A DNA stretch of 64,000 bases, taken from assembly GCA_963741945.1 (NCBI GenBank), contig CAVUKA010000006.1, positions 192,001-256,000 on the forward strand, given 5' to 3'. The notes beneath the pieces are model-generated. The model ran no database searches and was not told the origin of the DNA. It saw nothing but the letters and a program-made list of their open reading frames with translations. Position 1 is the stretch's first letter; each line of letters opens with the position of its first letter. This document shows positions 31,371 through 39,849 of this stretch, in pieces. The position numbers and the translations under genes are program-made. The DNA is from an uncultured Gemmatimonadales bacterium. Its GTDB lineage: Bacteria; Gemmatimonadota; Gemmatimonadetes; Longimicrobiales; RSA9.

Positions 31371-32318
31371 CTAGCTCGTTCCCGGGGCGGCGGGCGGGGG
31401 GACATCGTCGTAGCAGAGGTAACGGAGCAGCGCCCGGTGCTGCCGGTCCCAGTCCACCGGGCCACCCGAGCGCTCGCCGGGGAGCAGGTGGCCGGGCACC
31501 TGCCGGAGATAGGAATCCACGGAGCGGCGCAGGGACAGGAAGGGCGACCTGCTGCGCAGCCAGTTCTTGCCCGACGCCGCCTCCATCGCCTGCACCCATC
31601 GGATCAGCCGCCCCACCTGGACGGCCAGCGCATCGGCCGGATTGCTTTGTCTGAAGTAATGCAGGATCGGGTACTGGTTGTTGGCTGTGGTCACTCGCGC
31701 CAGGCGGTGCGCGAATTCGCGGGCCAGCGAGTACGACCATTCCAGCTCCTGCGGGCTCGGCTCACCATCCCAGTCGATGGGCGCCGCCCCAGCCAGGGCG
31801 TGGTCGATGTCGTTGGCGAGTGCCGTCTGCACCGACTGCTGCGTGTAGATGGAGACCACGTAGGTGATGCCCACGGAGAACAGGCCGAACCCGATGAACG
31901 CTTCCAGGATGGCGAGCATGCGGAACACCGGTTGAAGTGGCACGACGTCACCGAGACCCAGTGTCGTGGCCAGATAGCCGCTGTAGTAGAACGCCTGGAG
32001 CCAACCCCGGTGTGCCGGCCCCGGATCGAAGGAGAACGAGAGCACGAACGGCCAGTGGATGAAGGCGAACCCCACGATCAGGATCGCCACCCACAGGATC
32101 GGGGTGAGCGCGGCGATGGCCGGGCCGCCGAGCGTGAGGATGCGGTCGTTCGGTCGGCCGCGGCACCTGCCGACGAACCGCGTCAGGCGCCACACGGACC
32201 GGCTCTGCACACGTGTGAGCGGACCCGCGTGGGCGGTGGGATGGAAAACCGTCAACAGGACGTCGGCCAGCACGAGGGCCACCAGGAGCGCGCCCGCCAG
32301 GAGCACGGCGGCCGTCAC
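31371..32318 (-). CDS. Potassium-channel-family (2-TM pore) membrane protein
   Basis: YYSGYLATTLGLGDVVP pore signature, YPILHYF; start uncertain (GTG 32318 or 32321). Confidence 0.75.
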   Translation of the reverse strand: MTAAVLLAGALLVALVLADVLLTVFHPTAHAGPLTRVQSRSVWRLTRFVGRCRGRPNDRILTLGGPAIAALTPILWVAILIVGFAFIHWPFVLSFSFDPGPAHRGWLQAFYYSGYLATTLGLGDVVPLQPVFRMLAILEAFIGFGLFSVGITYVVSIYTQQSVQTALANDIDHALAGAAPIDWDGEPSPQELEWSYSLAREFAHRLARVTTANNQYPILHYFRQSNPADALAVQVGRLIRWVQAMEAASGKNWLRSRSPFLSLRRSVDSYLRQVPGHLLPGERSGGPVDWDRQHRALLRYLCYDDVPPPAAPGTS

Positions 32319-32442
32319 CACTCGGCGGCGTCGCTGAACACGTGGAGAGGAGCTTCGGACTGGGATCGCATGGCTGTCACTCCCGCTTCGGTGCGAACCC
32401 GGCACCGTGCACGACCCGCGCCAGACTGCCGGGGCGGGTCGC

Positions 32443-33873
32443 TCAGGCGATCTCGTCCCGCGCCAGCCGCAGCGGAAGCCGGACTTCGAACCGGGTCCGC
32501 CCGGGCTCCGCGTCCACGGTAATGCGTCCCCGATGACGGTTGACCACGATGTTGTGGGCCACGTGCAGACCCAGCCCCGTGCCCGTTCCCGCCGGCCGCG
32601 TGGTGAAGAAGGGATCGAAGATGCGGGAGCGGATCTCGGCGGGGATCCCGGGGCCACTGTCGATCACGTCTACCACCACGTGGTCCCCGGACCGCCGGAC
32701 CTGGAGCCGGATCCGGCCGTGGCCGTCCATGGCATCGATGGCGTTCGCGATCAGGTTCGTCCACACCTGGTTGATCTCGCTGCCGTACCCCTCGACGGGG
32801 GGCAGGTCGGGCTCGTACTCGCGCTCGACCGTGACGCCCTCCTTCAGTCTGTGCTTCAGGATGACGAGCGTGGTCTCCAGCGTCTGGGGGATGTCCACGT
32901 CCTGCACCGGGGCGCGGTCCATGTAAGCATAGCTCTTCACCGCCTTGACGATCTCCGAGACCTGCCGCGCGCTCGTCTCGATCTCTTCCCGCAGCCCGCG
33001 CGCCGCCAGGCCGGCGCCGAGCCATCGCAGCACAACCTCGAGCTGGTCGGCTGCCAGGCGCTCCGCCAGCGTCTCGACCCGCTCCACCGTCCATCCGTAG
33101 GCGACGAGGGGCTCCGCGATCTCCCAGCCGGCCTCCACCCCCCGTTCCTCCAGCCAGTCCGTCAGGCGGTCCTCCTCCAGGCTGCACGTCAGGGCGTCCG
33201 TTCTCGCCGGGCCGGGGCGGGTGAGGGCGTCTTCCAGCTCCTGCACGGCCGCCCCCCCGTCCTCGCCCGGCCGAAGCGCGCCCAGGCGCGCGGTCCACGC
33301 CTGCCACGCCTCCAGCGCTTCCCCCAGCTGCGCCACTGCGCGCTGGATCGCCGCGGCCGGGTTGTTCAGCTCGTGGGCCAGTCCCGCCGCCAGCGTGCCC
33401 AGCGACGCGAGCTTCTCCTGCTCCATGAGGGAGGACTCCGTGGAGCGGAGCCGGGCCGCCATGGTGCGGAGGATCGAGGCCGCAGCGTCGGGGCTGGCGG
33501 CCAGCAGCCCGCGGAACGCCGCCGGCTGGATCACGAGAAGCTCGCTCGGCTCGACGGCCCGCACCGTCGCTGACCGGGGCGCCCCCTCCAGCAGCGACAT
33601 CTCCCCCAGGAACTCCCCCGGCTCCCGCAGGGCCAGCACCACGTCCGCCCCGCTTTCCCGGGTGAGGACCTCGAGCCGCCCCTCCACGATGATGTGCAGC
33701 CCGTCCGCCGGCGTGCCTTCCTCCATCACGGTCTCACCGGCCGCGTAATGCTGGCGCGTGGCCATCCGGCAGAGGCGGCTCAGGTCGGCTTCGGCCAGAT
33801 CCGAGAACAGCGGGAGGCGACGCAGGAACTCCTTGTTCGTCCGGACCGTGCGGAGCGGGCCGGCGCCGGTCAT
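32443..33873 (-). CDS. Cytoplasmic histidine kinase with N-terminal cyclic-nucleotide-binding domain
   Basis: LPLFSDL, GEFLGEMSLL...PRSATVRA; AHELNNP; NQVWTNLIANAIDA; DSGPG; FDPFFTT; GTGLGL. Confidence 0.9.
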   Translation of the reverse strand: MTGAGPLRTVRTNKEFLRRLPLFSDLAEADLSRLCRMATRQHYAAGETVMEEGTPADGLHIIVEGRLEVLTRESGADVVLALREPGEFLGEMSLLEGAPRSATVRAVEPSELLVIQPAAFRGLLAASPDAAASILRTMAARLRSTESSLMEQEKLASLGTLAAGLAHELNNPAAAIQRAVAQLGEALEAWQAWTARLGALRPGEDGGAAVQELEDALTRPGPARTDALTCSLEEDRLTDWLEERGVEAGWEIAEPLVAYGWTVERVETLAERLAADQLEVVLRWLGAGLAARGLREEIETSARQVSEIVKAVKSYAYMDRAPVQDVDIPQTLETTLVILKHRLKEGVTVEREYEPDLPPVEGYGSEINQVWTNLIANAIDAMDGHGRIRLQVRRSGDHVVVDVIDSGPGIPAEIRSRIFDPFFTTRPAGTGTGLGLHVAHNIVVNRHRGRITVDAEPGRTRFEVRLPLRLARDEIA

Positions 33874-35603
33874 CGGGAGGACACCGCGGCCGACCGCGGG
33901 GCGAGAACGGGTCCCGTCATGTGCTGGTGCACGAACTGCACGGCCATGGCGCCCTCGCCCACCGCCGAAGCCACACGCTTCACCGACCGGTGCCGTACGT
34001 CGCCGGCCACGAAGATCCCGGGCACGCTCGTCTCCAGCCAGAGCGGGGCCCGCCCTGGGGTCCACCCGGCGGGGCGCTCGCCATCGCGCAGGACGTCCGG
34101 GCCGGACAGGATGAAGCCGCGGGCGTCCCGTGCCACCAGTCCGCCCAGCCATTCCGTGCGCGGGACCGCGCCGATGAAGACGAAGACGGCGTGGGCCGCC
34201 AGCGTTTCCCTGGCCTCCGGCTCCCGCGTCTCCACCACGATCCGCTCCATCCGCTCGTCGCCTTCCATGGCCACCACCTGCGCGCCCGTGCGGACGGTGA
34301 TGTTCTCCGTCTCCTCGATCTGAGCGATGAGGTAGTGGGACATGCTCGTGGCCAGCGTCGGGCCGCGCGCCAGGATGGTGACCGACCGGGCGAATCGGGC
34401 CAGGTACATCGCGCCCTGGCCGGCGCTGTTCCCCGCCCCGATGACGAACACGTCCTCGCCCGTGGCCTCGATGGCTTCCGTGATCGCCGCCCCGTAGTAC
34501 ACGCCCGCCCCGGCCAGGCGGTCGGCCCCGGGCACGTCCAGCCGGCGGTACGACACGCCCGTCGATACCAGCAGCGCCTGGCCCGTGATCTCCGCGCCGT
34601 CCGAGAGCGTCACCACCGGATAGCCATCCTGGAGTCGCAGCGCAGTGGCTTCCGCAGGCGTCAGGATCTCCGCGCCGAAGCGCCGGGCCTGCGCCACCGC
34701 CCGCCGGGCCAGGTCGCCGCCGCTCAGACCCACGGGGAAGCCGAGGTAGTTCTCGATGCGCGAGCTCTGACCCGCCTGGCCGCCGGGCGCCTCCCGCTCG
34801 ATCAGCAGCGTCCGCAGCCCCTCCGACGCCCCGTACACGCCCGCCGCGAGTCCTGCCGGCCCCGCGCCCACGATCACCAGGTCGTATGCGTCCGCTTCCG
34901 CCTGCAGCCGCAGCCCGATCCGCTCCGCAATGGCCGGATTGTCGGGACGCGCCAGGTGCGAGCCATCCGGGAATACGACGAGCGGGAGCATTGCCGCGTC
35001 GTCGGCTCCGCCCCCGCCATGGTCGCCGCCGGCGCCCCCCGTCGCCAGCTCCAGGAGCCGGCGAGCCTCCGGATTCTCCTCCACGTCCAGCCACTGGAAG
35101 GGCGTGAGGTTCCGGGCCAGGAAATCCTTGACGCGATGGCCATCCGCGGACCACCGGTGACCGATCACGCGGACGCCTTCGAAGCGCGGACGGAAGCGTG
35201 CGCGCCACGTGTCCAGCAGGTCGGTGAGCACCGGGTACAGGTGCTCCTCCGGCGGGTCCCACGGCTTCATCAGGTAATGGTCCAGCCGGATCTCGTTGAT
35301 CGCGCTGATCGCCGCGTCCGTGTCGGCGTAGGCAGTCAGCAGCACCCGCTTCGCGTCCGGGAACAGGAGCATGGCTTCGCGGAGCATCTCCACCCCCGTC
35401 ATTCCCGGCATGCGCTGGTCGGCCAGGAAGAGCGCCACCGGCTCCTCCTTCAGCTTCAGCTCCCGCGCCGCTGCCAGCGCTTCCATGCCGGACGTGGCGC
35501 GCAGGATCCGGTACTCGGAGCCGTACTCCTTGCGCAGGTCACGGGCGACGGCGCTCAGGACGGCGGCCTCGTCGTCCACGGCGAAAATGATCGGCTTGGT
35601 CAT
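33870..35603 (-). CDS. Receiver domain fused to a thioredoxin-reductase-like flavoprotein (no cysteines)
   Basis: AVDDE, ADQRMP, KPW receiver motifs; GAGPAG, IENYLGF, GAGNSA, AGDVR; YGAAITEA where TrxB has CxxC. Confidence 0.9.
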   Translation of the reverse strand: MTKPIIFAVDDEAAVLSAVARDLRKEYGSEYRILRATSGMEALAAARELKLKEEPVALFLADQRMPGMTGVEMLREAMLLFPDAKRVLLTAYADTDAAISAINEIRLDHYLMKPWDPPEEHLYPVLTDLLDTWRARFRPRFEGVRVIGHRWSADGHRVKDFLARNLTPFQWLDVEENPEARRLLELATGGAGGDHGGGGADDAAMLPLVVFPDGSHLARPDNPAIAERIGLRLQAEADAYDLVIVGAGPAGLAAGVYGASEGLRTLLIEREAPGGQAGQSSRIENYLGFPVGLSGGDLARRAVAQARRFGAEILTPAEATALRLQDGYPVVTLSDGAEITGQALLVSTGVSYRRLDVPGADRLAGAGVYYGAAITEAIEATGEDVFVIGAGNSAGQGAMYLARFARSVTILARGPTLATSMSHYLIAQIEETENITVRTGAQVVAMEGDERMERIVVETREPEARETLAAHAVFVFIGAVPRTEWLGGLVARDARGFILSGPDVLRDGERPAGWTPGRAPLWLETSVPGIFVAGDVRHRSVKRVASAVGEGAMAVQFVHQHMTGPVLAPRSAAVSSR

Positions 35604-35635
35604 GGGCTCCAGGGGTGTGTGGCCCGGCCGCAGCG

Positions 35636-38600
35636 CTACTCGGCTGCGCTGGCCGGAGTGAGCTTGATTTCGGTTCGGAGCTCGCCGGCGCGGGAGCGGG
35701 CGAGGGCGGCGTCATCGCCTCGCCCTGCGCGGTCGTGGATGCGTGCTTGCAGCTCCAGCGCCCGCGCTTCGTACGCCGGCATCTGCGCGGAGCGGTAGAA
35801 CTCCAGCGCGGGCGAGAGGGTCCGCACCGCTTCCTCGAGGCGGCCCTCCCGGAAATGGGCGCGCGCCAGGCGCTCGGAAGCCGTTGCGGCCGAATACTCG
35901 TCCTGGTCCGCCCGCGCGTTCGCGATGGCGTCCTCCAGCTCGCGCACGGCCGCGGCGGAGCCCTGCTCGAGGCCCACGGACGCGGTGCCCACGTGGATCC
36001 GGCTCCCGTACCCGCTCCACCCGCTCCAGTCCCCCTCCTCGAGGAACGTCCGGGCGCTGGCGAAGCTCCCCATGGCCCGGTCGAGCTCCTTCTTCTCGAG
36101 CTCGCCCATCCCCACCACATAGAACCCGGCGCAGGCACATTCGAAAGCGTTCCTGGAACGGGCCAGCTCCGTGCCACGGCGCGCGTGCTCCAGCCCTCGC
36201 TCCAGGTCGCCCAGCTCGTAGAAGACGCTGCCCACGATCAGGTGCACGTCCGCTTCCTTCACCGGGTGCCCTCCGCTCGGCGCCGCCGCCAGCGCTTCGT
36301 CGATCCGCGTCCGCGCCCGCTCGTAGTCGCCCGCTCGCGCGTATGCCAGCGCGCTGGAGGCCAGCGCATGCCCCTCGATCTCCGGCATCCCGTATTCGCG
36401 CGCCAGCACGATCACTTTCTCGAACTGCTCCACGGCCCGCCGCGGGTCCCGGTCGAGCAGCGTCTCGGTGGCGAAGAAGAAGGGCAGCAGCAGCAGCTGC
36501 TCCATCCCGAGCGCCGCCGCCAGCTCCGCGCTCTCCCGGATGTACGGTGCCGCCCGCGACGGCAGGCCCGTGACCATGTAGATGAGGGAGATCCACGACA
36601 GGATGCGGGCGAGTCTCACACCGTCATCGATGGCGCGCGCCCGCTCCTCCGCCTGCTGAAGCCGCTCCAGGACACCCTCGTAGTCCGCCAGCTTGTACCG
36701 GACCACTGCCCATCCCACGATCGCATCGAGCAGGCGCTCCGGCGGCGCATCGGGCAGCCGGGCCAGCGCTTCGAACGTGCGCTCGTAATGGCCACTCGCT
36801 TCGGTCAGCGCGTACAGCGATACGGCCCGCTCGGCCGCCTTCGTGGCATGGTGAGCCGTGCGCTCCGGATCGTTTCCCTGCCAGAAGTGATGGGCCAGCA
36901 CCGGGGCGAGTTCCTCGAGCCGGTCCGCGTACAGCGCCTCCAGCGCCGCGCCCGCCCGCGCGTGCAACTCCCGGCGACGCTGCTTCAGCAGCAGCTCGTA
37001 CGCCGCCTCCTGCGTCAGCGCATGCTTGAAAATGTACTCCCGCTCCGGGACCGTGGTCCGCTCACGCACGAGCTCTCCGTACGTCAGCGTCCCCAGGTGC
37101 GGATCGACGTTCTCGATCCGATCCGGCGGCGGCGCGGCGCGGCAGACCGACGCCAGCGCCCGATAGAAGAACGTGCGCCCCAGCACGGCGGCCGTCTGCG
37201 CCACCCGCTTCGTGGCATCCGGGAGCCGATCGATGCGCGCGCTCAGCACGCCGGCAAGCGTCTGGGGGATCGCCACGCTCGTGATCTCCCGCGTCGCCCG
37301 CCAGTGGCCGTCTTCGCGCACCACGTGCCCTGATTCGATCAGCGAGCGCAGCACCTCCTCGAGGAAGAACGGGTTCCCGTCCGACCGCCGCAGGATCAGC
37401 TCGCGCACGCTGCCGGGAAGCGCTTCGATGTGCAGCAGGTTGCCCAGCAGCTCGCCCGCACGCGCTCCGTCGAGAGGCTGCAGGTCCAGTCTCGCGTACC
37501 TCGACCCGAGGCTACCCGCCAGACGGTCCAGCAGCCCCCAGCTCGGCGCCTGCCGGTCCGGACGTAGCACGCACACCAGCAGCAGCGGCTCCGAGGCCGC
37601 GATCGTGGCCACCTGCCCGATCAGTTCCAGCGACGCACCATCCGCCCAGTGCAGGTCGTCGAACACCAGCACGTGCGGCCGCCCGGTGTCGCCCTGCGGT
37701 CCGCTCCCCTCGCGCATCACCGCCCGGAGCGCGCCGATCACCACGTCCGCGATCCGCTCCACCAGCGCCCCGCCCTCCAGCTCCCCCAGCGCCTTCCTCG
37801 CCGCGGGCGTCTCAACCGCCAGCAGCGTCTCCATGACCGGGAGCGCGGACGGATCGAGCGACAGCCGGTCCACGAACGCCTCCAGCCGCTCCCGCACTAC
37901 CGCCGGCCCCTCCATGTCCCCCGCACCGATCATCTCCCGACCCAGCTGCTGCCACGGCTGGTAGGCGAGCGACTGCCCGTACGAGACCGCCCGGCCTTCG
38001 TACCACGCCACACCGGCCGCCCCGGCACCCGACCGCACCTCGGCCATCAGCCGCGACTTGCCAATGCCGGCCTCGCCCACCACCGCCACCACGCTCCCGG
38101 CCCCACGACCCAACCCCTCCAGCGCCTCCGCCAGCGCCGACAGCTCCGCTTCCCGACCCACCAGCGGCGATGCCAGCCCTTCACCCTCCAGCCCGCGCGT
38201 CTTACCCGGCCGCGCTTTCGCTCCGAGCACCGCGAACGTCTCCACCGCTTCCTGCTTGCCCTTCAGCTCCACCACGCCCCGGGGCTCCAGCTCGAACAGC
38301 CCTCGCACCAGCCGGCGCGTCTCGCCGCTGATCAGGAGCGTTCCGGGCGACGCCAGCGATTGCAGCCTCGCGGCCACGTTCGCCGTGTCGCCCATGGCCG
38401 TGTACTCCGCCTTCACCTCATCGCCCATGTACGCCAGCACCGAAGTCCCGGAGTTGATCCCCACCCGCACCCGGAACTCCACACCGTAGCGACGCTCCAC
38501 CATCTCCCCGTACTCCGCCGCCGAGTCCAGCAGCGCCAGCCCGGCCCGCACTGCCCGCTCGGCATCGTCTTCGTGCGCTACCGGCGCGCCGAACAGCGCC

Positions 38601-38872
38601 AGCACCGCATCACCCATGAGCCGCGCGACCGTGCCGCCAAAGCGCGTCACCGCGGCATTCATGAAGCCGAACCCGCCGTTCATGATCGCCGCCCAGTCCT
38701 CCGGGTCCAGCCGCTCCGCCAATGCGGTCGAGCGGACCACGTCCGCGAACAACACCGACGTCAGCTTCCGCTCCCCCTCCACCGGCCGGGGGGCGTCCAG
38801 ACTCCCACCGCACCGGTTGCAGAATCGGGAGTGATCCGGGTTCTCGGTGGAACAGATGGGACAGACAATCAT
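35636..38872 (-). CDS. Zn-ribbon + class III nucleotide cyclase + STAND/AAA ATPase + TPR-like repeats
   Basis: CPIC and CNRC; LFADVV, MGDA, GDTANVAARL; GEAGIGKS; FDDLHWAD; GNPFF; FKHAL. Confidence 0.9.
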   Translation of the reverse strand: MIVCPICSTENPDHSRFCNRCGGSLDAPRPVEGERKLTSVLFADVVRSTALAERLDPEDWAAIMNGGFGFMNAAVTRFGGTVARLMGDAVLALFGAPVAHEDDAERAVRAGLALLDSAAEYGEMVERRYGVEFRVRVGINSGTSVLAYMGDEVKAEYTAMGDTANVAARLQSLASPGTLLISGETRRLVRGLFELEPRGVVELKGKQEAVETFAVLGAKARPGKTRGLEGEGLASPLVGREAELSALAEALEGLGRGAGSVVAVVGEAGIGKSRLMAEVRSGAGAAGVAWYEGRAVSYGQSLAYQPWQQLGREMIGAGDMEGPAVVRERLEAFVDRLSLDPSALPVMETLLAVETPAARKALGELEGGALVERIADVVIGALRAVMREGSGPQGDTGRPHVLVFDDLHWADGASLELIGQVATIAASEPLLLVCVLRPDRQAPSWGLLDRLAGSLGSRYARLDLQPLDGARAGELLGNLLHIEALPGSVRELILRRSDGNPFFLEEVLRSLIESGHVVREDGHWRATREITSVAIPQTLAGVLSARIDRLPDATKRVAQTAAVLGRTFFYRALASVCRAAPPPDRIENVDPHLGTLTYGELVRERTTVPEREYIFKHALTQEAAYELLLKQRRRELHARAGAALEALYADRLEELAPVLAHHFWQGNDPERTAHHATKAAERAVSLYALTEASGHYERTFEALARLPDAPPERLLDAIVGWAVVRYKLADYEGVLERLQQAEERARAIDDGVRLARILSWISLIYMVTGLPSRAAPYIRESAELAAALGMEQLLLLPFFFATETLLDRDPRRAVEQFEKVIVLAREYGMPEIEGHALASSALAYARAGDYERARTRIDEALAAAPSGGHPVKEADVHLIVGSVFYELGDLERGLEHARRGTELARSRNAFECACAGFYVVGMGELEKKELDRAMGSFASARTFLEEGDWSGWSGYGSRIHVGTASVGLEQGSAAAVRELEDAIANARADQDEYSAATASERLARAHFREGRLEEAVRTLSPALEFYRSAQMPAYEARALELQARIHDRAGRGDDAALARSRAGELRTEIKLTPASAAE

Positions 38873-39053
38873 GGCCGGCGACGGGGGTCCTGGGGCGAGG
38901 GTTGAGCGTGCAGTCCTTCAATATGGTGCCGGCCGACGCCCGCGTTCAAGGGTTATGTCGATGTCGATGTGGGGAATTGCCCCTCGCACTGGAACCGCGT
39001 GGCGCGCGCGCCTACATTCACGTGGACTCCTACTCTCCGAGGAGAAGAACATC

Positions 39054-39758
39054 ATGAGCCCCATCCGCATTACCACGGCCGCAGCGGTCGTGCTCTCACT
39101 GGTTGCAGCGACGGCCCCCGCCGAGGCGCAGGAGACGGATCATTCCGTGTCCAGCGGCGGCATCATGGTCCCGGGCTGGCAGGGCGCCGTGGACTCGCGG
39201 GCTGCCGCGTCCGGGCAGACGGTGGCGGACTCCCGCTTCGTCGAGACGTCGGGGGGATACCACATCACCACCGGCCCGGCGACGACGTACTGGAATCCGG
39301 CGAACACGGCCGAGGGGGACTACACGGTGACGGCCACGTTCACCGAGCCGAAGTACATGAACCGGAACGACCACCCGCATCCCTACGGTCTGTTCATCGC
39401 CGGAAAGGACATGGGCACTGCCCGGGAGCAGATGCTGTATTGCGAGGCGTACGGGAACGGCACGTTCATCGTGCGCGGCTTCGGTCCGGAGCCGTTCCAG
39501 ATGAACGGCCGCAGCGGTGAAGCGAACCCGGCCGTCCACAAGGCGGCGGGCAAAGGGGAGCCGGTGACGCAGACGATCTCGATGTCGGTGAAGGGGGACC
39601 GCGTGGACTGCGCCATCAACGGGAAGGTGGTGGCCAGCTATCCCAGGTCGGAGGTTACCGGCCCGGGCAAGCTGTCGGCCACGGATGGCGTCTACGGGAT
39701 CCGGTTCGCCCACAACACCGAGGGAACGGTCACCGGTCTCGAGCTGACCCGGCCGTAG
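39054..39758 (+). CDS. Secreted hypothetical protein (probable beta-sandwich)
   Basis: GAGGAG SD, signal peptide ending AEA-Q, HPHPYGLFIAG. Confidence 0.7.
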   Translation: MSPIRITTAAAVVLSLVAATAPAEAQETDHSVSSGGIMVPGWQGAVDSRAAASGQTVADSRFVETSGGYHITTGPATTYWNPANTAEGDYTVTATFTEPKYMNRNDHPHPYGLFIAGKDMGTAREQMLYCEAYGNGTFIVRGFGPEPFQMNGRSGEANPAVHKAAGKGEPVTQTISMSVKGDRVDCAINGKVVASYPRSEVTGPGKLSATDGVYGIRFAHNTEGTVTGLELTRP

Positions 39759-39772
39759 CTCAGCGGCGAGGC

Positions 39773-39799
39773 GGCGCCGTCGCGGCTTGCGACGGCGCC
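39773..39799. terminator. GC-rich hairpin between convergent genes
   Basis: GGCGCCGTCGC-ggctt-GCGACGGCGCC, 11-bp stem. Confidence 0.55.
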
Positions 39800-39849
39800 A
39801 TCCTCGGCGGCGGCGGATCCGTTCGCCGGACCCGCCGCCCGCCCGGGGA

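Follow-up and report, generated by a model that had tools for sequence, protein, structure and literature searches.

A conserved histidine kinase and flavoprotein response regulator gene pair with a linked STAND-type cyclase gene in an uncultured Gemmatimonadales bacterium

A three-gene cassette and its layout

We analyzed a stretch of 64,000 nucleotides of DNA from an uncultured Gemmatimonadales bacterium (GenBank assembly GCA_963741945.1, contig CAVUKA010000006.1), which is called the window throughout; positions are counted from its first letter. The region 31371-38872 contains genes for a class III nucleotide cyclase fused to a STAND module with TPR repeats, for a response regulator in which a receiver (REC) domain is joined to a glutaredoxin-fold and thioredoxin reductase (TrxR)-like flavoprotein, and for a soluble histidine kinase with a cyclic nucleotide (cNMP)-binding (CNB) domain. 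These genes are a real conserved three-gene module, in which a second messenger probably feeds a two-component system that has an enzymatic output. The kinase and the regulator form its core, to which the cyclase gene is an accessory. Gene order, gene junctions, the catalytic and phospho-acceptor motifs and the linkage of the genes were all observed directly. The features of the three genes are listed here in the direction of reading.

35636..38872, minus strand: zinc ribbon / class III cyclase / STAND (AAA_16) / TPR gene, 1078 amino acids (aa; protein P0001); open reading frame (ORF), translation, Pfam
38795..38869, minus strand: N-terminal four-cysteine zinc ribbon CPIC...CNRC, aa 2-26; Pfam DZR, Zn_Ribbon_1 and DUF7577, all under cut-off
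38228..38761, minus strand: cyclase catalytic domain, aa 38-215; Pfam Guanylate_cyc 85 bits, alignment to solved cyclases including CyaC 1wc0 and CyaB 3r5g
37574..38167, minus strand: STAND/AAA_16 NTPase module, aa 236-433; Pfam AAA_16 84.7 bits
35705..36463, minus strand: C-terminal TPR / MalT-like repeats, aa 804-1056, presumed ligand sensor; TPR_12 37.2 bits (above cut-off), TPR_MalT 30.3 bits (below cut-off)
33870..35603, minus strand: REC / glutaredoxin-fold / TrxR-like flavoprotein response regulator, 577 aa, cysteine-free (protein P0002); Pfam, NCBIfam, alignments, AlphaFold2
35247..35588, minus strand: receiver domain, aa 6-119; Pfam Response_reg 48 bits, alignment of 38 sequences
34920..35174, minus strand: glutaredoxin-fold domain without active-site cysteine, aa 144-228; AlphaFold2 element order, Foldseek, weak Pfam match
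33915..34886, minus strand: TrxR-like FAD/NAD(P)H module, aa 240-563; Pfam Pyr_redox_2 (aa 240-551), NCBIfam, structure comparison
32443..33873, minus strand: soluble cNMP-binding histidine kinase gene, 476 aa, start overlapping the upstream stop (ATGA); Pfam, NCBIfam
33496..33753, minus strand: CNB domain, aa 41-126; Pfam cNMP_binding 86.5 bits
32467..33375, minus strand: kinase core, from the H-box AHELNNP (His167) to HATPase_c (aa 366-469); alignment of 71 kinases, Pfam 91 bits

The region consists of four long co-oriented ORFs, all on the minus strand, in a window with a G+C content of about 70%. The cyclase gene ends at 35636 and the regulator gene begins at 35603, leaving an intergenic gap of 32 bp; this spacing suggests that the two genes may be co-transcribed. 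The stop codon of the regulator (TGA) and the start codon of the kinase (ATG) share the letters ATGA at 33870-33873. The kinase gene stops at 32443 and is followed by a K+ channel-like ORF with candidate GTG starts at 32405 or 32321, which gives a spacing of 37-122 bp accordingly. A preliminary description of this DNA had reported the four co-oriented genes, the 32-bp gap and the ATGA overlap, and the translations and an inspection of the junctions confirmed this layout. The domains that it had named for each of the four genes were likewise recovered with Pfam and NCBIfam; these matches are not due to chance, because they are strong and lie within long ORFs.

Conservation of the pair and its linkage to the cyclase gene

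A scan of species-representative genomes gave 557 confirmed places with the regulator, of which the best-scoring 80 (loci L001-L080) were analyzed. Neighbors of the regulator were identified by tblastn with the proteins of the window and by clustering of all ORFs; counts of 81 or 71 include the window. The 80 loci come from about ten phyla and include Gemmatimonadota, Alpha- and Betaproteobacteria, Verrucomicrobiota, Cyanobacteriota, Chloroflexota, Acidobacteriota, Bacteroidota, Actinomycetota, Deinococcota and others; the closest are from Gemmatimonadaceae, with 75-77% identity. An orthologous kinase core was found within 2.5 kb of the REC-TrxR-like gene in 70 of the 80 loci, downstream on the same strand in 58 of them, upstream on the same strand in 10 and on the opposite strand in 2. 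Three of the ten loci without a kinase are cut by the end of a contig. Pfam cNMP_binding was detected in 68 of the 71 kinases scanned, and the kinase is the sole general neighbor of the regulator among the 80 loci. The linkage of the kinase (70/80) and the frequency of its CNB domain (68/71) indicate that the conserved core is a two-gene cassette of CNB kinase and REC-flavoprotein, so that the proposed pairing of these two genes held. Beyond the three genes and their antisense shadows, none of the ORFs of at least 100 aa in the window clusters with five or more other loci. Within the family to which the window belongs the cassette is present in 11 of 24 genomes, a tally that includes the unpublished genome G017.

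Some loci have additional genes next to the pair. Three loci from Verrucomicrobiota (L023, L033 and L051) have 2-4 tandem kinase cores, 2 or 3 of them with a detectable CNB domain, after a single REC-flavoprotein gene. In 12 loci, mostly from Verrucomicrobiota, the REC-flavoprotein gene is directly preceded on its own strand by a gene for a VTT/DedA-type membrane protein (for example L052:7442-8752, plus strand); the window does not have this gene.

The kinase of the window has the motifs of a histidine kinase. His167 is invariant in the 71 sequences, and N373/N377, D405-G407-G409 and G431-G433-G435 are at least 90% conserved. The phosphate-binding cassette of its CNB domain has the canonical form GE...PRSA..RA at aa 90-106 (GEMSLLEGAPRSATVRA), with both the Gly-Glu and the Arg-Ser/Thr-Ala elements; the cassette arginine of CNB domains binds the cyclic phosphate. 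No hydrophobic segment was predicted in the kinase or in the regulator. A kinase with an intact cassette and no transmembrane segment, as originally described, is thus what the gene encodes. The spacing between H-box (His167) and N-box (Asn373) is about 200 residues, while classic HisKA kinases have a shorter one. The intervening stretch, aa 168-365 (window positions 32779-33372), contains a segment with the consensus LD.L.RSDRE..L..WLE..GV..AW.LAP.LV that is conserved in the 71 kinases, and it may be a domain inserted into the dimerisation hairpin.

A full cyclase-STAND-TPR gene on the same strand as the regulator is present in 13 of the 81 loci, which belong to three phyla (Gemmatimonadota; Alpha- and Betaproteobacteria; Chloroflexota). 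In 11 loci it lies directly upstream of the regulator: in the window, in L001 and L002 from Gemmatimonadaceae, in L003, L005-L009 and L014 from Alphaproteobacteria and in L004 from Burkholderiales. In other phyla, cyclase orthologues immediately before the pair are 59-74% identical to that of the window. The two triads from Chloroflexota are arranged differently; the cyclase gene is upstream with a larger gap in L069 (Anaerolineae) and downstream of the kinase in L071 (Caldilineae). In a FastTree phylogeny of the regulator the 11 triads fall into one well-supported clade of 13 rows, which mixes Gemmatimonadota, Alphaproteobacteria and Betaproteobacteria, and the triads from Chloroflexota form a separate clade. 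The mixed clade and the separate Chloroflexota triads therefore indicate that the three genes moved together between phyla and that their linkage outlasts rearrangement. In addition, L029 has a non-STAND cyclase directly upstream of the regulator and L013 has a cyclase fragment at the end of a contig. In L057 from Chloroflexia a cyclase-AAA_16 gene (L057:8153-9814, minus strand) lies divergently upstream of the REC-flavoprotein gene; a kinase was not detected within the 21.6 kb examined there. STAND matches in L041 and L059 were dropped from the cyclase counts, as they belong to a BTAD-AAA_16 regulator about 9 kb away (scanned in L041, inferred by close similarity in L059).

The presence of a cyclase gene goes along with the state of the kinase. 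The canonical cassette (Gly-Glu ... Pro-Arg-Ser/Thr-Ala) occurs in 23 of the 71 kinases and is degenerate in the other 48, where the region of the cassette arginine reads, for example, Trp in Verrucomicrobiota, VPVT in Cyanobacteriota and FSRM in Acidobacteriota and Hymenobacter. All 15 cyclase-bearing loci with a kinase are among the 23 with an intact cassette and none is among the 48 others. This pattern is expected if the neighboring cyclase feeds the kinase. Chance adjacency of the cyclase gene is unlikely, because the genome of the window (4.09 Mb) has just two class III cyclase genes. We also examined 29 paralogous cyclase-STAND loci, with flanks of 1.5 kb, in 300 other genomes of the phylum; identity in the cyclase domain is at most 42% for these proteins. 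A REC-flavoprotein gene was adjacent in none of the 29, which indicates that the link between cyclase and pair is specific to the orthologous subfamily. For the neighborhood of the cyclase, the preliminary description was correct to the extent that 13 of 81 loci, from three phyla, keep the gene in the same orientation, always with an intact cassette where a kinase is present; most loci do not have it.

The proteins encoded in the region

The regulator is the least conventional of the three proteins. In its receiver D10, D11, D62, T90 and K113 are invariant among 38 sequences from many phyla, as is usual in functional receivers. The AlphaFold2 model (mean pLDDT confidence score 86.4, pTM fold score 0.70) consists of REC, a glutaredoxin-type fold and a two-domain TrxR-like core. 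The elements of aa 144-228 follow the order beta-alpha-beta-alpha-beta-beta-alpha (strands 144-148, 169-173, 208-210 and 216-218; helices 153-164, 178-188 and 222-228). The Pfam Glutaredoxin match is weak (E 0.017, under cut-off). The thioredoxin-type fold is thus present, and at the position equivalent to the active-site CxxC or CxxS motif the protein has RWSADGH. A glutaredoxin-like domain had been predicted; its fold was supported by AlphaFold2 and Foldseek and its active-site cysteine is missing.

The C-terminal module has the architecture of a TrxR. Foldseek gave AhpF (4o5q) as the top match and a TM-score of 0.92 to the TrxR of L. lactis (5mh4). The glycine motifs GAGPAG for FAD and GAGNSAG for NAD(P)H are invariant in the 38 sequences, as are Y370, E376 and R413. 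The TrxR model TIGR01292 scores 211 bits on the regulator, against a cut-off of 343. The window protein has no cysteine at all. In the alignment with solved TrxRs the redox-active C-A-V-C corresponds to G-A-A-I, and the former CxxC site reads YYGAAITEA (aa 369-377). Where TrxR has H-R-R after the NADPH glycine motif, the alignment shows A-R-G in the regulator, with a single arginine in common. Among the window protein and the best 119 cluster representatives, 67 of 120 are cysteine-free and there is no conserved cysteine column; the replacement motif YGAAxTEA is at least 95% conserved at most positions in these 120 sequences. The family is large, with at least 8000 cluster representatives matched and at least 65% identity across phyla, and the flavoprotein module is 55-87% identical across the sampled phyla, including the surface that replaces CxxC.

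The regulator resembles low-Mr TrxR and AhpF in the two-domain FAD/NAD(P)H fold and the glycine motifs, and AhpF also has an N-terminal thioredoxin-type fold. It differs from both in the G-A-A-I that replaces CxxC, the complete lack of cysteine, the presence of a receiver and the low TIGR01292 score. Since it is cysteine-free and has a conserved YGAAxTEA in place of CxxC, it is not a thioredoxin or disulfide reductase, and in this sense the earlier labels of TrxR and redox enzyme do not apply. Judged by its sequence, the module appears to be functional as a flavoprotein and strongly constrained, but dithiol-disulfide reactions are beyond its reach. Because cysteines are lacking, we consider it more likely that the module is an electron-transfer flavoenzyme linked to NAD(P)H, with a non-thiol acceptor.

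Most response regulators bind DNA, and enzymatic outputs are less common. The coupling of the receiver to a flavoprotein and not to a DNA-binding domain, which had been described from the sequence, is supported by a sister family in which a CNB domain is joined to the same module. Relatives in the same order encode the glutaredoxin-fold/TrxR-like module without a receiver. In one of them (L098:1099-2754, genome G036) a cNMP_binding domain is fused directly to the N-terminus of the module. A database search with this protein showed that all 120 among the matches listed (P0124-P0243) carry PF00027 and PF07992. The CNB-fusion proteins share YY..T.E at the former CxxC site, which reads YY.AT..EL there, and their module is 45-57% identical to aa 138-570 of the window regulator. 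In the sources they are named only 'FAD-dependent oxidoreductase' or 'thioredoxin reductase'. These one-component relatives resemble the window system in having the same flavoprotein module under regulation by a CNB fold; they differ in that they have no phosphorelay and that their phosphate-binding cassette is non-canonical (FTGDIDILTRRRPVVGA). The finding that the same module couples to a CNB-fold sensor either directly or via a kinase-receiver relay supports the view that the flavoprotein is the regulated output. Four further loci (L095, L096, L097 and L100 in genomes G038, G032, G034 and G040) have stand-alone genes of about 410 aa for the glutaredoxin-fold/TrxR-like module, without receiver or CNB domain, with 54-55% identity to the window regulator over its aa 142-564.

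The cyclase protein has the order of a STAND NTPase, with an N-terminal effector, a central P-loop NTPase and C-terminal repeats. Its Walker A motif is GEAGIGKS at aa 266 and its Walker B-like motif is FDDLHW at aa 404. The cysteine pairs of the zinc ribbon were seen in 10 of 11 full-length orthologue rows, the remaining row being without the first cysteine, and also in L071. In the catalytic domain the two metal-binding aspartates (D44 and D88) and the transition-state asparagine and arginine (N165 and R169) are all kept, so the enzyme looks active. The position of the substrate lysine is occupied by R84, where CyaC 1wc0 and CyaB 3r5g have lysine. The second specificity position is T158, as in CyaC; threonine at this position is a mark of class IIIb cyclases. 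The first position is arginine in all 14 pair-adjacent STAND cyclases and the second is threonine in 13 and serine in one. The first position in the 29 paralogues of the phylum is lysine in 11, glutamine in 9 and arginine in 3. The Arg/Thr cyclase may therefore make a nucleotide other than plain cAMP.

The closest known architecture is that of the M. tuberculosis Rv0386 group and the TOMM kinase/cyclase family TIGR03903, which have the same order of class III cyclase, AAA_16 and TPR. TIGR03903 matches aa 75-768 of the window protein at 276 bits, below its cut-off of 706. Rv0386 includes a C-terminal LuxR-type helix-turn-helix (HTH) and has Gln/Asn as its substrate pair. The window cyclase differs from this group by having no C-terminal LuxR-type HTH, an N-terminal zinc ribbon and an Arg/Thr pair that is conserved in 13 of 14 sequences.

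Two other loci of the genome of the window (G000) encode related domains. One holds the second class III cyclase gene of this genome, which encodes a HisKA-REC-cyclase hybrid (L105:4341-6554, minus strand, contig C2) and adjoins a gene for a 7TM-PAS-HisKA-HATPase-REC hybrid kinase. On contig C5 (L104:1839-6998, plus strand) the first gene encodes a 1056-aa protein with a TLC-transporter-like part, HEAT repeats and, at the C-terminus, a cNMP_binding domain. It precedes genes for a stand-alone receiver, 46% identical to that of the window regulator, and a histidine kinase, in this order. These genes may be a second cNMP-linked relay.

The remaining features next to the cassette are a channel-like gene and unassigned ORFs.

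31371..32405, minus strand: K+ channel-like gene (Ion_trans_2), start uncertain (GTG 32405 or 32321); Pfam 43.5 bits
38847-39758, plus strand, and 39096-39713, minus strand: ORFs in the gap between the S9 peptidase and cyclase genes, without Pfam match; no clustering with ORFs from the related loci

The channel-like protein has three hydrophobic segments and, at aa 148 of the long form, a filter-like motif TLGLGD of the TxGxGD pore type. Homologues were found by tblastn (E 1e-5) in none of the 80 loci, including the closest Gemmatimonadaceae locus L001 (77% identity). The gene is kept only in a genome of the same genus (G001, 72% identity), where synteny is expected anyway. No terminator-like site was found between kinase and channel, and co-transcription of the two is for this reason possible within the genus. 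The channel gene is a lineage-specific neighbor outside the conserved cassette. An S9 peptidase gene lies upstream of the region, and the approximately 1 kb between it and the cyclase gene (38873-39849) contains only ORFs without a Pfam match. Downstream there is a convergent gene for a GlnRS-type synthetase and, beyond it, a Met-zincin gene.

Proposed mechanism and alternatives

On balance we consider it probable that the three genes are a self-contained signaling cassette, which leads from a ligand via cNMP, kinase and receiver to a switch of the flavoprotein. The TPR region of the STAND protein would bind the ligand, and NTP-dependent oligomerisation of the protein would bring the N-terminal cyclase domains together. 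Class III cyclase domains are active solely as dimers, and a cyclic nucleotide would for this reason be made upon oligomerisation. The cNMP made by the cyclase dimer would bind to the CNB domain of the kinase and alter autophosphorylation of His167. The phosphoryl group would then pass from His167 to Asp62 of the receiver, and the phosphorylated receiver would switch the attached glutaredoxin-fold and TrxR-like FAD/NAD(P)H module. TrxR-type enzymes need domain rotation and a dimer, and the switch could act on either. We infer every biochemical step of this route, as well as the direction of the signal, the identity of the nucleotide, the effect and sign of phosphorylation and the acceptor of the enzyme. 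Of the circuit of STAND cyclase, kinase and receiver in the preliminary description, the pair, its cyclase linkage and the intact motifs remain; the channel, a role in defense and a redox enzyme in the sense of a disulfide reductase do not. A broader and more tentative suggestion, which we regard as possible though doubtful, is that the glutaredoxin-fold/TrxR-like module is not a disulfide reductase but a new class of switchable flavoenzyme, which in bacteria of many phyla is under the control of a CNB domain or a CNB-kinase relay, and that in the subclade of the window it is the terminal effector of a STAND cascade.

Several points weigh against the ligand-to-flavoprotein cascade. The product of the cyclase is not readable from its sequence and is not predictable, because the lysine of adenylate cyclases is arginine in all 14 pair-adjacent STAND cyclases. 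For the association between cassette and cyclase the tree provides 2 independent contrasts if only well-supported branches are counted and 5 if all are; with so few it cannot become significant when relatedness is taken into account, and a raw Fisher p of about 1e-12 makes it look stronger than it is. No cyclase is present within the DNA examined for 8 of the 23 intact-cassette loci, some of which are on short contigs. Sensing of cNMP is not a general rule for the pair, because 48 of 71 kinases do not have the cassette arginine. The second cyclase of the genome, the HisKA-REC-cyclase, could also feed the kinase. The fractions reported for the loci are biased towards close relatives, because these are the best 80 of 557. 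Finally, the assignment of the flavoprotein as output rather than input is drawn from architecture alone.

This last point leads to an alternative in which the flavoprotein is a redox or pyridine-nucleotide sensor that tunes phosphorylation of its own receiver. The receiver would take up phosphate as a sink or provide feedback to the kinase, and the true output would be elsewhere. The FAD and NAD(P)H motifs are kept and the catalytic cysteines are all gone, as in a ligand-binding pseudo-reductase, and ORF clustering found no conserved downstream target gene near the pair. We consider such a sensor unlikely, however, as conservation of the module is extreme and extends to the surface in place of CxxC, the sister family has it C-terminal to a CNB sensor, which is the usual position of an output, and no other regulator is conserved nearby. 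Alternatively, the cyclase gene could be a co-inherited neighbor, the kinase reading the general cAMP pool or a non-nucleotide ligand and the STAND cyclase signaling to other receptors. Besides the other cyclase the genome has six further cNMP_binding matches, of which five exceed the Pfam cut-off, and this explanation would also fit the 8 intact-cassette loci without a visible cyclase, the few independent contrasts and the absence of the pair within 1.5 kb of all 29 paralogous loci. It too seems improbable to us, since the linkage is kept across three phyla in at least three gene orders, cyclases occur only beside kinases with an intact cassette, this position is taken in L029 by a different cyclase of the non-STAND type, co-transcription is suggested by the 32-bp spacing and the genome has only two cyclases.

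The preliminary description had also raised a role in defense. In an anti-phage or abortive-infection system with Pycsar/Avs logic the STAND protein would detect phage, cNMP would be the alarm and the flavoprotein, here with the channel, a toxic effector. Like Pycsar, the window has a dedicated class III-type cyclase encoded beside a CNB-domain protein that would read its product; the PADLOC models for PycC and the Pycsar effector (PycTIR) reach 53 and 63 bits on the cyclase and CNB domains, the cassette is patchy in the family (11 of 24 genomes) and there are signs of horizontal spread between phyla. Pycsar effectors, however, combine the CNB domain with a TIR or transmembrane killing domain, whereas the CNB protein here is a histidine kinase feeding a receiver-flavoprotein, and the cyclase is fused to STAND-TPR. 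The generic Pfam models score higher on these domains than the PADLOC models, whose matches reflect no more than a shared fold, and neither the REC-flavoprotein nor the channel matches any PADLOC model; the assignment to defense on this basis was rejected as domain-level likeness. No defense-island context is visible among the flanking genes (S9 peptidase, GlnRS-type synthetase and Met-zincin), which are of the housekeeping and peptidase type. Typical defense genes are far less widespread and less conserved than the two-gene core, and the channel is not conserved. A defense function is thus very unlikely. Least plausible of all, and in our view almost to be dismissed, is a four-gene system with the K+ channel-like protein as an additional effector of the relay, which had been proposed as well. 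In its favor, the channel gene follows the kinase stop after 37-122 bp in the same orientation, without a terminator-like site in between, and all four genes are kept in G001. The protein nevertheless has no CNB or receiver domain in Pfam, the gene is missing from all 80 loci including L001, and the ORF clustering described above found no other conserved component; we therefore rejected it as a fourth component.

Regulators with this architecture are already known as a class. The P2CS/P2RP 'TrxB' family and Galperin's censuses (PMC9739842, PMC9953108, PMC5847659) catalogue REC-TrxR regulators, and S. coelicolor SCO7297 (histidine kinase) and SCO7298 (response regulator, 'trxB3') are listed, unnamed, in the 'TrxB' family (PMC9739842). 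One example is from a thermophilic cyanobacterium whose genome also has one cNMP_binding kinase (PMC9953108). Archaeal REC-TrxR proteins are tabulated as well (PMC5847659). SCO7298 is reported to be induced by sulfane sulfur and by acid shock (PMC9952706, PMC2631018). As far as the accessible parts of these sources describe them, TrxB-family regulators resemble that of the window in having a receiver, a pyridine-nucleotide-disulfide-oxidoreductase module and an adjacent classic histidine kinase; the same parts give no function, lack of cysteines, CNB kinase or cyclase partner, and SCO7298 is compared here by its described architecture only. A literature search, with subscription journals and supplements outside its range, found no paper with a characterisation of the pair, a mention of the missing cysteines or a link of the pair to a CNB kinase or a cyclase. 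The combination had been called undescribed; this does not hold for the REC-TrxB class as such, while a functional characterisation was indeed not found.

The regulator family is very widespread and catalogued but functionally blank, and the name 'thioredoxin reductase' that it carries in annotations misleads. A CNB-fold sensor is part of nearly every partner kinase, and one subclade has acquired a dedicated STAND-type cyclase. Cultured carriers, for example strains of Devosia and Hymenobacter, are among the loci. The findings lead to the hypothesis of a non-transcriptional path from a second messenger to a redox enzyme and provide a handle on the targets of STAND cyclases. If the proposed cascade is true, the three genes would encode a complete route from receptor to messenger, kinase and enzyme without a transcription step.

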